Part shown: positions 1-63,137 of the stretch, piece after piece
Layout: each line of letters opens with the position of its first letter
How positions within the stretch are numbered: the first letter of the stretch is position 1
Source of the DNA: a virus
Taxonomy: Duplodnaviria > Caudoviricetes
DNA: 64,000 nt
Virus record (IMG/VR): IMGVR_UViG_3300014205_000172
Location: 1-64,000 of that record
Strand: one strand, 5' to 3'
Program-made: the position numbers and the translations under genes
Notes under the pieces: model-generated
Told to the model about the DNA's origin: nothing
What the model saw: only the letters and a program-made list of their open reading frames with translations
Databases searched by the model: none

Positions 1-1542
1 ACTTACGAAGAAATGCGTCGTGCGGCCAATGGCTTTATCGATGTATGTAAGACAGCTCAACGTGGCGGTGGTATTGGCCGTGGTGATGACCGCACATCCG
101 CACGCCCCGTGCATGACATCGGCGCTATCGGTAATTACCGAGGTGGTAGTGATCGTGGTAACGAGAAGGCTACGTTGGATGACGGCTGGTTGGAAATTGC
201 TCGTGCTAAGCAGGGCGTAACCGATGTAGTCGAACATGTGGAGGATCGTCCTGCTACGCCACGCTATGTTGAAGAACAAGCGCGGCAAGCGCCACTGTAC
301 CGTGAGCCTGATCGTCCAGACACTGTCATCGAAGGGCCTGATTACACCAAGGCCGATCCATGGCGTGAGTTCTGGCGGCAAGGCGAACACTGGCAGGTCG
401 CCCACCATTCCAAATGGAAGCTGACTGTCGATCCAGATGCTGACATCGATGACGGTATTAAAGCAATCCCGTCGTTTTACAACATCAATACCCATCTCAA
501 ATATTACGTCAAGAATGAAAGCGGCGAAGTCCGTGAGGAGTTAATCGAAGTGAATGACGATAACAAATACCAAGCTCATCAGCTGCTTTCGTCTCAAGAC
601 GAATCGTTCAAACCACCCGTTCGTAGTGCCGGGATGTCACTGAACCCTCGCAAAGTCCAGGCGGCCGATGACGTGCTGGGTAACGATGTTCTCGATACGC
701 CGGCTCCGGCACCCGACTTGGTAGGTATTCTGGCTACGCTGGATGAAGAAAGCCTCGTTCCAAGTGGCGACAAAACCCTCATCACCGACAGCCTGGCAGC
801 ATCGGTCTTCAGCGTCCGTGCGAAAATGATCCGAGAGGGCGCGCCGACCAGCGTAGAACTCTCCGTCATGCGAACGCCGGTATTGGTGAAATCGATCGAC
901 CAGACCGAGCTGATCAACAAGGTGTTCGAAGCCCCAACCATGATGGCCGCAGCCAACGCCATGAACGAGCAGAAGCATTTGTTCGAGCCGAACTTGTGGA
1001 ACGTGCTCAACGACCGCATCACCAGCAAGTTCCATCATGCCACTCGTTATGCGTTCAGCTACGACGGCCTGGGCGGTAAAGTGAAATTCGCCCAACACTT
1101 CGATAAGGTTCTTCAGCACGTCGAAGGTAAACGTGGTAAAGAATGGGCAGCGGCCTATGCCGCGCGCGTGAAATACGTTCTGGCTTCCGCCTGTGGGCAT
1201 TTGAACGCTGAAGATTTGTCCGACGGTTTGTCGGGCTTGGGTGATCTGACGGGCATCAATGCGGTGGTTTTCTCAGACTACCAAGTCGTTGTCGCGTTGG
1301 ATTTCACACTGGACCAATTGGGATTGGGTAAGGCACTGATCGATAACCCAATGGGTCTGTCCGTATCGGGGTCGGAGCATCCGCGTCTTCACGCTGCGTT
1401 GCTGCGCGTGTACAAGAAGCTGGACGACACCTATGCGGCGATCCACATTCGCGTCGTGTTGTCGACTTCGGATAATCAGCTGGTTGAGATCGTGCCATAC
1501 AGCGCCCGCACGTCGTCCTTCGTGCTGGCTCTGCTTAACTAA
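1..1542 (+). CDS. Hypothetical jumbo-phage protein, 5'-truncated (frame open from base 1)
   Basis: Frame 1 is open from position 1 to TAA at 1540-1542 (>509 aa); phage-like codon usage; no recognisable motif. Confidence 0.75.
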   Translation, partial: TYEEMRRAANGFIDVCKTAQRGGGIGRGDDRTSARPVHDIGAIGNYRGGSDRGNEKATLDDGWLEIARAKQGVTDVVEHVEDRPATPRYVEEQARQAPLYREPDRPDTVIEGPDYTKADPWREFWRQGEHWQVAHHSKWKLTVDPDADIDDGIKAIPSFYNINTHLKYYVKNESGEVREELIEVNDDNKYQAHQLLSSQDESFKPPVRSAGMSLNPRKVQAADDVLGNDVLDTPAPAPDLVGILATLDEESLVPSGDKTLITDSLAASVFSVRAKMIREGAPTSVELSVMRTPVLVKSIDQTELINKVFEAPTMMAAANAMNEQKHLFEPNLWNVLNDRITSKFHHATRYAFSYDGLGGKVKFAQHFDKVLQHVEGKRGKEWAAAYAARVKYVLASACGHLNAEDLSDGLSGLGDLTGINAVVFSDYQVVVALDFTLDQLGLGKALIDNPMGLSVSGSEHPRLHAALLRVYKKLDDTYAAIHIRVVLSTSDNQLVEIVPYSARTSSFVLALLN

Positions 1543-1677
1543 CTGACTTCCGCTCTACAAGCCTGAAGTCGGCAACATAACGACCGTGCTAGCACGGTGT
1601 AGGTCGAGTCCGTCGTCACTAATGTGATTACGGCAGGTTGCGGGATGTCACAAATCCCGCAGTCTTGTTTTTTTTGT
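1543..1677 (+). ncRNA. Candidate structured cis-regulatory RNA (multi-hairpin leader ending in an intrinsic terminator)
   Basis: Helices CTGACTTC/GAAGTCGG (1543-50/1565-72), CGACC/GGTCG (1581-85/1602-06), CCGT.GTCAC/GTGAT.ACGG (1610-33), GCAAC/GTTGC (1572-76/1637-41), then a terminator hairpin with T-run. Confidence 0.45.
1636..1675 (+). terminator. Rho-independent terminator
   Basis: GGTTGCGGGAT-gtcacaa-ATCCCGCAGTC followed by TTGTTTTTTTT. Confidence 0.8.
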
Positions 1678-1689
1678 TTCGAGGACGCT

Positions 1690-2325
1690 ATGAACATCAT
1701 CGAGCAGCTTGCGTTTCAAGATACCGGTGGCGATTCATTTGAAGCCGCCAAGGTGGAGTATGAGATTGAGATATACCTTGAAGGTTTTGACATCGAGGAG
1801 GTGAAGGCTAAGGCTTCGTCTTACGAGGTTCAAGAGCAATGGGGTATCTACGTTCCAAAGACTGAGCAAAACGCCTCAGGCGGCTCTATGCGAGTTCGTA
1901 GGACCGATGTTACACAGGCTGAGAGTGCGTTTGTTCACACCACCAAGCTTGAACGTAAAGGTGCCGGTAAACCTGAGCATGAAGTAGCGGCTCATGAAGA
2001 CCTGTTTGACATGTATAAGTTGATGGCCGATCAGGGCTTGATCAAGACCCGTTACAACGTACCTGCTGAATTGGCTAATGGGACTAAATACGTTCTTGAA
2101 GTTGACGTGTTCTACAACAAGTTAGGTGAGTTGATTCCATGGTGTAAGATCGATGCTGAGTTTCCAGAAGGCGCCGATGTTAAGCTGACTAAGGAAGATA
2201 TTCCGTTCAGTTACTCTGACATCATCATCTGCACCCCTGAGCAGAAGGGTGAAGATAAAGCACTGGCTAAACGAATCAGTGCACTGTACGAGAAGTATTT
2301 CCGCACGCCCAATGTCGCGGTTTGA
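1690..2325 (+). CDS. CYTH / triphosphate tunnel metalloenzyme superfamily protein
   Basis: N-terminal EYEIE (ExE motif), MRVRR, KTRY, LEVDVF and IDAEF follow the CYTH pattern; RBS GAGGA at 1681 favours ATG 1690. Confidence 0.65.
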   Translation: MNIIEQLAFQDTGGDSFEAAKVEYEIEIYLEGFDIEEVKAKASSYEVQEQWGIYVPKTEQNASGGSMRVRRTDVTQAESAFVHTTKLERKGAGKPEHEVAAHEDLFDMYKLMADQGLIKTRYNVPAELANGTKYVLEVDVFYNKLGELIPWCKIDAEFPEGADVKLTKEDIPFSYSDIIICTPEQKGEDKALAKRISALYEKYFRTPNVAV

Positions 2326-12385: not shown

Positions 12386-12417
12386 TACACGCCGGCCTCA
12401 TGCCGGCGTGTATGCCG
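12386..12417. repeat. Intergenic palindrome (TATGCCG family)
   Basis: TACACGCCGGC-ctcat-GCCGGCGTGTA-TGCCG. Confidence 0.7.
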
Positions 12418-12421
12418 CATC

Positions 12422-13669: not shown

Positions 13670-13716
13670 CATACACCCCCGGCATTAGCCGGGGGTGTAT
13701 GTCTGTTCTTTTTTTT
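13670..13716. terminator. Palindromic terminator between convergent genes
   Basis: CATACACCCCCGGC-atta-GCCGGGGGTGTATG then TCTGTTCTTTTTTTT. Confidence 0.8.
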
Positions 13717-25472: not shown

Positions 25473-25520
25473 CATACACCCCGGCCATTGGCCGGGGTGT
25501 ATGTCTGCATCTTTTCTTTT
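25473..25520. terminator. Palindromic terminator between convergent genes
   Basis: CATACACCCCGGCC-att-GGCCGGGGTGTATG then TCTGCATCTTTTCTTT. Confidence 0.75.
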
Positions 25521-36243: not shown

Positions 36244-36297
36244 AGTCAAGCCATCAGATACCTGTAAGCTTGCACACGCATTAAAGGATAATACGCC

Positions 36298-36768
36298 ATG
36301 ACAAGACGCAGTCGATCTACACGATCTACGTTTCGAGAGTTGCTTCAGGATAACACCAAGAAGATGGACAGCAGCGAAAACATCCCCGCTCACTTAGTGC
36401 GGGATATGTTGCTGACCCATGGTATCTCACCTGCCCAGTGGGATAAGATGGCGGATCAGTATTACCGCAAGGTTAATGCTAATTCCAAAAATGAAGTTGA
36501 CCTGCTCAAAGTCACTCACGATAAGAGCAACATGGCCAAAGCTTTGGCCAAAGACACCTTACCTTGGAGACGGTGTGAATCAACCATCCAGATCCTAGGT
36601 CCTGTTAGTTATAAAGTGAGTATTGAACTTACTTTTCCTAATGGTGTCACGTACAAGCATGAAGTGTTCAAACGCAATAAGTACTACGAGCCTGATGCGG
36701 TTGATGGTGACGAAGATGAACAGGCCGAAGATATCGAAGATGAGCCGAAGGAAAATGACGATGAATAA
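36298..36768 (+). CDS. Hypothetical protein with acidic C-terminal tail
   Basis: 156 aa; RBS AAGGA. Confidence 0.7.
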   Translation: MTRRSRSTRSTFRELLQDNTKKMDSSENIPAHLVRDMLLTHGISPAQWDKMADQYYRKVNANSKNEVDLLKVTHDKSNMAKALAKDTLPWRRCESTIQILGPVSYKVSIELTFPNGVTYKHEVFKRNKYYEPDAVDGDEDEQAEDIEDEPKENDDE

Positions 36769-59186: not shown

Positions 59187-59220
59187 CATACAGCTCGGCG
59201 CAATGCCGAGCTGTATGCCG
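59187..59220. terminator. Palindrome (TATGCCG family) ending the late operon
   Basis: CATACAGCTCGGC-gcaat-GCCGAGCTGTATG-CCG. Confidence 0.75.
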
Positions 59221-59230
59221 TATAAATTCG

Positions 59231-61171: not shown

Positions 61172-61216
61172 ATACAGCCGGGGTCATTCCCGGCTGTATG
61201 CCGTCTCTTTATTTTT
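61172..61216 (+). terminator. Palindromic terminator (TATGCCG family)
   Basis: ATACAGCCGGG-gtcatt-CCCGGCTGTAT-GCCGTCTCTTTATTTTT. Confidence 0.75.
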
Positions 61217-62226: not shown

Positions 62227-62257
62227 CATATAGCCCGGCATTGCGCCGGGCTATATG
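62227..62257. terminator. Palindrome downstream of the tail tube gene
   Basis: CATATAGCCCGGC-attgc-GCCGGGCTATATG. Confidence 0.75.
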
Positions 62258-62267
62258 TTTGTTCGCG

Positions 62268-63137
62268 TTACGGCGAGATCTGGGTACGCTTGAGCTGGTT
62301 GATCTGTTCGTGGAAACCGGTTTGAATGGAAGCCACGTTCGAATCTACAGCTTTCACGAAGTTCGGCTGGTACTGTGGATCGATGTTGCCGACCCGAGCA
62401 GCGTCCATGAACCCCTTCGCCAGCAGGTCTACCGCGTAACCCACTTTCTGATACCCGGTCCAGGTCAGGTTGTAGGTCACGGTCTCACCATCGCCCTGGA
62501 GGACTTTCTGCGAGGTGTTCTCACCGATGTCGTCACGAGGCCAGAAGTTGGTGATGAGGTAGGCGTTCTGAGGCGTCTTCCACAGGCGATCTGGTTCGTA
62601 GAACAGGATGGTGCCACCGTACATGTCAGCCAGGTGATCAGTAAACGAACTGTTCACCCCAGCCAGCAATGGGTGGATCACGTCCGGATCGCCGATGGTG
62701 TAGCGAACCATGTCTTCCAGGAAACGAATGACAGGCTTGCCGTATTTCTCGACGATGGTCGAACTGACCTGCGAACGTGCACGCGACACGCGACCTGGTG
62801 TACTGAAGACCTCACCCGAGTTACCGATCTGGGTATCCTGCGCCGACACGTTCAGTGTACGGTTCAGACCACCCCAGCCCTGCATCCAGGTTTCGATCAA
62901 CATCTTGTACGCAGCAACGTACGCTGCGCCGTTCGGCATCAGAGCCAAAGCCGTCGGTGCCTGAATCACTTTGGCAATGAGGTTTGGCTTGATGAAATCC
63001 GTCATCGACGGATAGAACGCCATGTCATGCAAGTACCCGTTAGGGCCTTGCACAGCAAGGTTGGTCACAGGAGTCTGTGACCGAGCGCCATACGCTTTGT
63101 TCGTCAAACTGTCTTTATAACGGGTTGTGCTGCTCAT
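62268..63137 (-). CDS. Tail tube protein (phiKZ gp30-like)
   Basis: 289 aa directly after the sheath (ATGA overlap); RARS......EKYGKP...FLE motif. Confidence 0.75.
   Translation of the reverse strand: MSSTTRYKDSLTNKAYGARSQTPVTNLAVQGPNGYLHDMAFYPSMTDFIKPNLIAKVIQAPTALALMPNGAAYVAAYKMLIETWMQGWGGLNRTLNVSAQDTQIGNSGEVFSTPGRVSRARSQVSSTIVEKYGKPVIRFLEDMVRYTIGDPDVIHPLLAGVNSSFTDHLADMYGGTILFYEPDRLWKTPQNAYLITNFWPRDDIGENTSQKVLQGDGETVTYNLTWTGYQKVGYAVDLLAKGFMDAARVGNIDPQYQPNFVKAVDSNVASIQTGFHEQINQLKRTQISP

Follow-up and report, generated by a model that had tools for sequence, protein, structure and literature searches.

Comparative Evidence for a Conserved Structured RNA with an Intrinsic Terminator Upstream of the CYTH/TTM-Fold Gene of Jumbo Phages

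The window analyzed in this work, that is, the first 64 kb of the 237 kb jumbo-phage record IMGVR_UViG_3300014205_000172 of IMG/VR, carries an RNA element of ~135 nt (window positions 1543–1679, + strand). The element lies in the gap between the TAA stop codon (1540–1542) of an upstream open reading frame (ORF), here named ORF-X, and the ATG (1690) of a gene whose product is predicted to adopt the CYTH/TTM fold. The comparison with related phages indicates that it is a real, conserved, and structured sense-strand RNA, which was previously undescribed. In the 5′ to 3′ direction, it consists of a hairpin (HP1), a C/A-rich linker, a second hairpin (HP2), a single-stranded box, a third hairpin (HP3), and an intrinsic terminator with a tract of eight uridines (table 1). 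The supported structure is that of four independent hairpins, with no multi-helix junction and no pseudoknot aptamer.

Distribution and Conservation of the Element

Thirteen metagenome protein clusters were 45–88% identical to the CYTH protein. In every contig fetched for them, ORF-X is followed by a gap of 145–172 nt and then by CYTH. The gap of the window is 98.6% identical to that of the relative L003 and 74% identical to that of L002, whereas the identity at four-fold degenerate sites in both flanking genes is 75–82% and 48–55%, respectively. The core of the gap (1598–1636) reaches 100% identity with L003 and 92% with L002. Because the identity of the gap exceeds that of the four-fold sites, the gap is, on the evidence of these alignments, under purifying selection well beyond the neutral expectation. 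Coding by a minus-strand ORF of 53 aa (1539–1700) is disfavored, with alignment gaps of 1, 2, 3, and 5 columns.

A first covariance model, built from eight close sequences, retrieved four distant members at the syntenic spot. A rebuilt model, from which L023 and L024 had been left out, found both of them syntenically (E ~5e-6 and ~3e-5, respectively). The scan of IMG/VR with a DNA pattern of the box and a U-run gave 29 loci, ten of which were accepted by the covariance model, and all ten are located between homologues of ORF-X and CYTH. The respective pattern scan of metagenomes returned 80 loci with two true members, both from known lineages and in the same context. The element was thereby found in 20 distinct sequences of uncultivated phiKZ-like jumbo phages, in each case in sense orientation and flanked by the same pair of genes, and the genomes searched with the covariance model contained one copy each.

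Pseudomonas phage pPa_SNUABM_DT01, which served as the outgroup, is without the element and shows a simple hairpin followed by TTATTATG before its CYTH gene. The weak model matches in this genome were driven by the terminator and fell mostly inside coding sequence, and they were not counted as members.

The initial annotation of this region had seen, by eye, no match to the purine, c-di-GMP, pistol, twister, or hammerhead consensus, and the database searches are in accordance with it. Rfam 15 gave no match at gathering score in the whole window. At E values up to 10, the region 1400–1800 gave only two chance-level matches on the opposite strand and no riboswitch. In addition, the window has no Rfam match of the tRNA clan or of the small self-cleaving ribozymes (hammerhead, twister, pistol, hatchet, and hepatitis delta virus-like), and no tRNA gene according to ARAGORN.

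Secondary Structure and Covariation

The gap is able to fold, as had been proposed, with a stability beyond that of shuffled sequence (−52 kcal/mol, z = −2.84, with 1 out of 200 shuffles as good), and the minus strand folds less well (z = −2.05). The best fold is made of four tandem local hairpins, with an energy of −49.8 kcal/mol versus −50.3 kcal/mol for the minimum free energy (MFE) structure. In HP1, the outer helix (1543–1550/1565–1572) is CUGACUUC/GAAGUCGG in RNA letters, and the inner helix GCU/AGC (1552–1554/1560–1562) closes the loop CUACA.

In the final alignment of the 20 distinct sequences, 91.2% of the cells are paired, versus 67% in shuffles and 32–46% with slid partners, and 31 of the 36 pairs change on both sides; the observed values are reached by 0 out of 500 shuffles, although such counts lean towards the model to which the alignments were fitted and the sequences are related. 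In favor of a real covariation signal are the de novo detections and the controls with slid partners. In detail, HP3 and the terminator stem each have nine of ten covarying pairs, with 97% and 99.3% of the cells paired, respectively, and seven of the ten pairs of HP1 change on both sides (85.7% of cells paired). HP2 is weak. The close clade has a GC-rich hairpin here, with a compensatory change from U-A to C-G in L002, but HP2 is poorly defined in the distant members, where both HP2 and the 5′ domain are poorly aligned, and its family-wide pairing is 76.5%.

The strand of the selected molecule can also be addressed. About 40 G-U cells of HP3 and the terminator correspond to A-C mismatches on the other strand, and the matches of the covariance model are all on the sense strand. 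Since the G-U cells fit one strand only and the model matches agree with it, the alignment indicates that the + strand RNA is the molecule under selection.

These results bear directly on the fold of the initial annotation, which comprised HP1, a three-way junction, a pseudoknot, and a terminator. The strings on which it was based are all found where it had located them, namely the HP1 strands CTGACTTC (1543–1550) and GAAGTCGG (1565–1572) with CTACA (1555–1559), GCAAC (1572–1576) and GTTGC (1637–1641), CGACC (1581–1585) and GGTCG (1602–1606), TGTAG (1598–1602), and CCGT.GTCAC (1610–1619) with GTGAT.ACGG (1624–1633). HP1, the CCGU...ACGG hairpin (i.e., HP3), and the intrinsic terminator are real and conserved in the comparison. 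On the contrary, the fold with the three-way junction has an energy of −30.5 kcal/mol and is ~19 kcal/mol less stable than the four hairpins, and the MFE structure uses ACCGUG/CACGGU (1583–1598) where CGACC/GGUCG had been proposed. Within the eight close relatives, the closing helix CAAC/GUUG of the junction is 65.6% paired and the CGACC/GGUCG helix 67.5%, with two of its pairs broken in six out of eight; the central pair of the CTACA/TGTAG pseudoknot is also broken in six out of eight. Apart from the window, only L003 and L009 possess the junction helices, and the three sequences are nearly identical in this part. The suggested competition of a conserved closing helix with the terminator is not supported either, GCAAC/GUUGC not being conserved. 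Covariation over the regions upstream of CYTH orthologs, the check that the annotation itself had proposed, supports the four hairpins, although HP2 weakly, and leaves its junction and pseudoknot without support.

The Conserved Box and the Linker

The box has the consensus RGGWCGARUCC and is placed directly 5′ of HP3, which is opened by the last CC of the box (overlap of 2 nt). Its GGWCGA part (1602–1607) is invariant in the 20 model-aligned sequences, and its 3′ half varies (GAGUCC, GAAUCC, GAUCC, or GACCC). The linker is also conserved in the relatives as a G-poor CAUCAAC(Y)UAAY sequence. The loops of HP3 and of the terminator vary among them.

Two members, L020 and L025, show a shorter arrangement, in which a single hairpin after the box carries the U-run and HP3 is itself the terminator; the version of the box in L020 is looser. 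Therefore, the minimal unit consists of the box, a hairpin, and a U-tract.

Elsewhere in the 237 kb genome, the full 10-nt box recurs at a single site, which lies on the opposite strand and lacks the hairpins, and for this reason a role as a general promoter or terminator signal was ruled out. The conservation of the box exceeds what a passive spacer would show. Most likely, the box is recognized by a protein or RNA that acts in trans, with the binder being hypothetical.

No conserved target of the box emerged from seven related phage genomes, in which complements of the box occur at approximately the chance rate and not at homologous loci; the candidate trans targets were rejected as chance-level, non-homologous matches. 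One of the best complements is located in a coding region, again at a non-homologous position. Another, at 159672–159683 of the genome (+ strand, outside the window), reads GGGACUUGACCU and could form an 11-bp duplex with one G-U pair with the box AGGUCGAGUCC. It coincides with a possible TTG start in a gap, with a TATG ~27 nt before it, and is within chance expectation. A separate case is L081, where a terminator loop at 1501–1510 (G006:52913–52922, + strand) carries GGAUUCGUCC, an exact 10-nt complement of the box of the same phage, and the tail of this site, CUGGUACUUUCUUUUUUUU, resembles that of the variant element of L025. This loop could be a kissing partner of the box or a coincidence.

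Terminator and Transcription Signals

The terminator is a canonical intrinsic one on the sense strand, with a GC-rich stem (1634–1667; −15.9 kcal/mol) and U8 (1668–1675). All 20 sequences have a strong stem and U8–9, located 14–30 nt before the Shine–Dalgarno sequence (SD) and the ATG. In the window, the distance from the end of the T-run to the ATG of CYTH is 14 nt.

The late promoter of phiKZ is TATG, with G as +1 (PMC4666361), and most phiKZ terminators are hairpins followed by TTAT (PMC10914365). The phage of the window shares this grammar, as it has repeat families of a hairpin plus TRTATG (D1, D3, and D10), and hexamers containing TATG are enriched upstream of its genes. T-runs of at least 6 nt occur in 13 of the 74 co-directional gaps of a crude ORF map. 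Because most terminators of the phage use a hairpin with TRTATG, the canonical U-tract terminator of the element is unusual for this phage.

Copies of the hairpin followed by TGTATG or TATATG were observed at 13677–13716, 25479–25518, 61176–61215, 62233–62272, 12393–12418, 59196–59221, and 2321–2347. The hairpins of these families are GC-rich, often with a T-rich run afterwards, and they match the hairpin plus TTAT and the TATG of phiKZ. They appear to be the standard punctuation between the genes of the phage.

The initial annotation had also argued that the terminator leaves no room for a separate promoter before CYTH. The argument is too strong for phiKZ-like phages because their late promoter is just TATG, but its consequence, namely that CYTH depends on read-through, looks right from the aligned gaps, since no separate conserved promoter signal is found between the terminator and the gene. 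In general, a TATG in the gap is not conserved among the relatives. The one at 1689–1692, which overlaps the ATG, was rejected as a late promoter, with L002 having TAATG. Similarly, the minus-strand TTATGTT (AACATAA at 1574–1580), which would be directed antisense into ORF-X, is not conserved, and a 95% identical relative has ACGTAA. The end of ORF-X shows no motif that resembles a promoter.

Alternative Pairings and the Riboswitch Proposal

The layout of a transcriptional ON riboswitch had been proposed for this region. The succession of a structured RNA, a terminator, and the ribosome-binding site (RBS) of the gene stands. The aptamer junction and the pseudoknot are not supported, and the search for an antiterminator gave candidates in single lineages but none that is significantly conserved.

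In nascent folds, that is, folds of the RNA cut before the 3′ arm of the terminator, the 5′ arm of the terminator is frequently engaged in an extension of HP3, by pairing with the box or its flank. The partners differ between lineages, for instance, GACGA/UCGUC in L015 and L049, AUAGUGC/GCACUAU in L058, and 8 bp with bulges in L002. This pairing was promising as an antiterminator, but the comparison of duplex energies with those of shuffled arms was not significant (Fisher p 0.10–0.17 over 12 lineages).

Two further pairings were rejected as features of the family. RNAalifold predicted a long-range helix of the extreme 5′ end with the box, which holds in the eight close relatives and is perfect in L010 (CGACCU/AGGUCG), but it is 67% paired family-wide versus 86% for the local HP1. 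In the nascent RNA of the window, the 5′ strand of HP1 can pair with the 5′ arm and loop of the terminator (−41.9 vs. −31.1 kcal/mol). This pairing is absent in L009 and most others.

Across the lineages compared, no antiterminator is significantly conserved, and lineage-specific antiterminators are possible. A metabolite riboswitch proper is quite improbable, given that neither a junction or pseudoknot aptamer nor a conserved antiterminator was found and that Rfam gave no match.

Interpretation of the Element

From the observed structure, conservation, strand, synteny, and terminator, the reading that we tentatively favor is that the element terminates the ORF-X mRNA in a largely constitutive manner and thereby throttles CYTH, and that its box is probably the site of a trans-acting factor. 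The element would form the 3′ end of the mRNA of ORF-X, and most transcripts would end at the U-tract with a hairpin-protected 3′ end, possibly giving a stable short RNA. CYTH, with its own SD, would be made only from those polymerases that read through, and its low dose would be set by a mostly constitutive, leaky terminator/insulator. A protein or an RNA would recognize in trans the invariant single-stranded box beside HP3. A comparable situation exists in phiKZ, where terminators inside 5′ untranslated regions (UTRs) result in abundant short RNAs and a minority of read-through transcripts (PMC10914365).

Several observations weigh against a mainly constitutive module. A strong terminator 14 nt before a conserved enzyme gene, together with an invariant box, also fits a regulated attenuator. 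Candidates for an antiterminator exist, that is, the 7-bp pairing of L058 (p ~0.025), the 8 bp with bulges of L002, and the HP1 pairing of the window. Moreover, the proposed factor that binds the box is hypothetical.

Regulated attenuation or antitermination is accordingly a possible explanation, although we hold it to be less probable; here a phage or host protein, an RNA, or, with lower likelihood, a small ligand would act at the box and HP3 or at the polymerase and raise or lower the read-through, and the mechanism could be nut/put-like or resemble protein-dependent attenuators. The linkage is absolute, as each element stands directly before a CYTH homologue and its terminator controls that gene only, and the outgroup without the element has an ordinary hairpin and TATG before CYTH. 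The invariant single-stranded box lies beside a covarying hairpin and just upstream of the terminator, and in L020 and L025 it directly adjoins the terminator hairpin. The antiterminators are plausible in some lineages but not conserved (combined p 0.10–0.17 over 12 lineages), the proposed closing helix is 65.6% paired, and the long-range helix between the 5′ arm and the box reaches 67% family-wide. A single short invariant box without a junction or pseudoknot is also unlike small-molecule aptamers, the variable loops of HP3 make a boxB-like, loop-specific recognition by a protein unlikely, and no Rfam riboswitch matches even at E up to 10. A wider proposal, that the element represents a new class of cis-acting RNAs which govern read-through by the non-canonical multisubunit polymerases of nucleus-forming jumbo phages and gate a CYTH/TTM nucleotide-triphosphate enzyme, either as a put/nut-like antitermination RNA or as an attenuator that responds to a factor or ligand and has the GGWCGARUCC box and HP3 at its center, is in its entirety somewhat more doubtful still.

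The succession of box, hairpin, terminator hairpin, and U8–9 tail is also the layout that is generally known from chaperone-dependent small RNAs (sRNAs). A trans-acting sRNA, either derived from the 3′UTR or independently transcribed, would use the box as its seed for pairing with a phage or host mRNA, and HP3, the terminator, and the U-tail as a module for stability and chaperone binding. The long U-tail is invariant here, whereas most terminators of the phage use a hairpin and TRTATG, and phiKZ produces candidate UTR-derived noncoding RNAs (PMC10914365). We nevertheless consider an sRNA unlikely: no target is conserved, the complements of the box being at chance frequency in the seven phage genomes, the 3′ half of the box is variable, which is unusual for a seed, and no upstream promoter motif is visible. 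A passive run of hairpins for termination or mRNA protection, or a site that acts at the level of DNA, such as a protein-binding palindrome, would suit the four independent local stem-loops, the perfect DNA palindrome of HP2, and the fact that other regulatory gaps of the phage are also conserved. It is very unlikely, however, as the single-stranded GGWCGA and CAUCAAC are kept across lineages with near-saturated four-fold sites, dozens of the G-U pairs would turn into mismatches if the molecule were the other strand or a DNA cruciform, and the covariance model matches the sense strand only. The least credible explanation is a disguised ribozyme (hepatitis delta virus [HDV]-like, hammerhead, twister, or pistol) or a tRNA-like processing element between ORF-X and CYTH. 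The box loosely resembles a tRNA T-loop (GGUUCGAAUCC vs. GGACGAAUCC), and the RNAalifold pairing of the 5′ end with the box in the close relatives is reminiscent of the topology of HDV P1. Yet the box cannot form a T-stem, the helix of the 5′ end and the box is 67% paired family-wide, the equivalent of HDV P2 (GCAAC/GUUGC) is not conserved, and both Rfam (at gathering score and at E up to 10) and ARAGORN returned nothing.

The CYTH/TTM Gene, ORF-X, and Their Neighborhood

The 211-aa product of the downstream gene has no match in Pfam. Its AlphaFold model (predicted local distance difference test [pLDDT] 78) was matched by Foldseek to CYTH/TTM triphosphatases and class IV cyclases with a probability of 1.0 and a TM score of ~0.45, the top matches being PH1819, the NE1496 triphosphatase, AtTTM3, and SaTTM. 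Residues E23, E25, and E27 of the acidic motif EYEIEI and several K/R residues are invariant among the homologues; residues 9–22, ahead of the motif, form a low-confidence segment (pLDDT below 50). The homologue in pPa_SNUABM_DT01 is annotated as CthTTM-like. Owing to the fold match, the invariant motif, and this annotation, the product is assigned, on a structure model, to the CYTH/TTM fold, as the initial annotation had done.

Relatives detected with tblastn belong to phiKZ-like jumbo phages of Pseudomonas, Ralstonia, Burkholderia, and Xanthomonas, and to Goslar. No CYTH homologue was detected in phiKZ itself. CYTH triphosphatases are scattered among jumbo phages (PMC7824862), and we found no RNA element reported in association with them.

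In pPa_SNUABM_DT01, the nearest annotated relative, the gene order is a β/β′ subunit of the non-virion RNA polymerase (nvRNAP), ORF-X, CYTH, and convergent genes including RuvC, and the window has the same order downstream. CYTH is the sole gene between the terminator of the element and the convergent genes, and hence the last of its transcription unit. ORF-X encodes 620–710 aa in the relatives, and its position is invariably that between a gene similar to nvRNAP subunits and the element. The family has no match in Pfam, PHROG (except for a weak one to phrog_15010), or the protein atlas. The well-conserved C-terminus of ORF-X reads STSDNxLVEIxPY...F(V/I)L.

After the CYTH gene, the sequence CATA-hairpin-TATG (2336–2368) is conserved in five relatives and follows the same grammar as D1, D3, and D10 and as the phiKZ terminator motif (PMC10914365). 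This is probably a bidirectional phage-type terminator which closes the transcription unit.

Elsewhere in the genome, the crude ORF map showed long co-directional gaps of 379–684 nt at 217411–218094, 152107–152510, and 36244–36622, the last of which is in the window. These may contain other noncoding RNAs or missed small genes.

Table 1. Coordinates of the element and of the neighboring features in the window
Feature	Position	Strand	Basis
ORF-X, 3′ part	1–1542	+	ORF list; synteny in pPa_SNUABM_DT01 and at every fetched locus
HP1	1543–1572	+	MFE fold; starts directly 3′ of the TAA stop
Linker, G-poor, C/A-rich	1573–1582	+	Alignment with a CAUCAAC(Y)UAAY box that is semi-conserved in relatives
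HP2, perfect 16-nt palindrome ACCGUG-CUAG-CACGGU	1583–1598	+	MFE fold
Single-stranded box GUAGGUCGAGUCC	1599–1611	+	Alignment of 20 sequences
HP3, CCGU(C)GUCAC/GUGAU(U)ACGG, loop UAAU	1610–1633	+	Fold and covariation
Terminator hairpin, 13 bp, one bulge, loop GUCACAA	1634–1667	+	Fold and covariation
U-tract, U8 (1668–1675) then GUUU	1668–1679	+	Sequence; family comparison
Shine–Dalgarno GAGGA of the CYTH gene	1681–1685	+	Sequence; purine-rich SD in all relatives
Predicted CYTH/TTM-fold gene, 211 aa	1690–2325	+	Structure model, motif, annotated homologue
Probable bidirectional phage-type terminator	2336–2368	Both	CATA, hairpin 2341–2363, TATG; sequence, conserved in relatives

Significance and Comparison with Known Systems

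Regulation at the level of RNA is almost unexplored in phiKZ-like jumbo phages, which use their own unusual polymerases. The element offers a handle on how these polymerases respond to canonical terminators, on whether jumbo phages use factor-dependent antitermination, and on why the dose of a CYTH/TTM triphosphatase sits under conserved control. It is also a candidate new family for the RNA databases. In nucleus-forming phages, transcription is physically apart from translation, and attenuation coupled to the ribosome cannot work. If the phage of the window forms a nucleus, as its phiKZ-like relatives and their nvRNAP would suggest, this type of attenuation would be excluded.

Like transcriptional riboswitches and attenuators, the element places a structured RNA before an intrinsic terminator and the RBS of the regulated gene. 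It differs from riboswitches by having one short invariant box and no conserved antiterminator, aptamer junction or pseudoknot, or Rfam match. With the nut site of lambda (boxA and boxB) and the put site of HK022, it shares a conserved unpaired box next to a covarying hairpin, both located in cis before a terminator of a phage operon. The HP1 loop CGCUCUACAA also appears to resemble loosely the boxA consensus (CGCUCUUA). On the other hand, boxB loops are conserved and HP3 loops are not, the Nus machinery of the host is unlikely to serve the multisubunit polymerases of the phage, and the element sits immediately at the terminator and not far upstream of it. We know of no N-like factor for these phages.

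The chaperone-dependent sRNAs derived from 3′UTRs similarly combine, at the 3′ terminus of an mRNA, a conserved single-stranded stretch, a hairpin, and a terminator hairpin with a long U-tail. In contrast to them, the element has no conserved target in the seven related phage genomes, and the next gene is only 14 nt away without a promoter signal of its own.

In phiKZ, RNAs of premature termination in 5′UTRs have been described, for example, T102 upstream of PHIKZ221 and a 141-nt RNA upstream of PHIKZ302 (Putzeys et al. 2024, PMC10914365). As in the present case, they belong to a jumbo phage with its own polymerases and have a terminator in the untranslated region just upstream of a gene. They show no similarity to the element in sequence or by the covariance model, the phiKZ motif is a hairpin with TTAT and not a canonical U8–9 tract, and they rest on the mapping of transcripts, whereas the element rests on covariation over 20 sequences. 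These short 5′UTR RNAs are the closest described counterparts of the element, which joins with them the structured UTR RNAs that end in a terminator.

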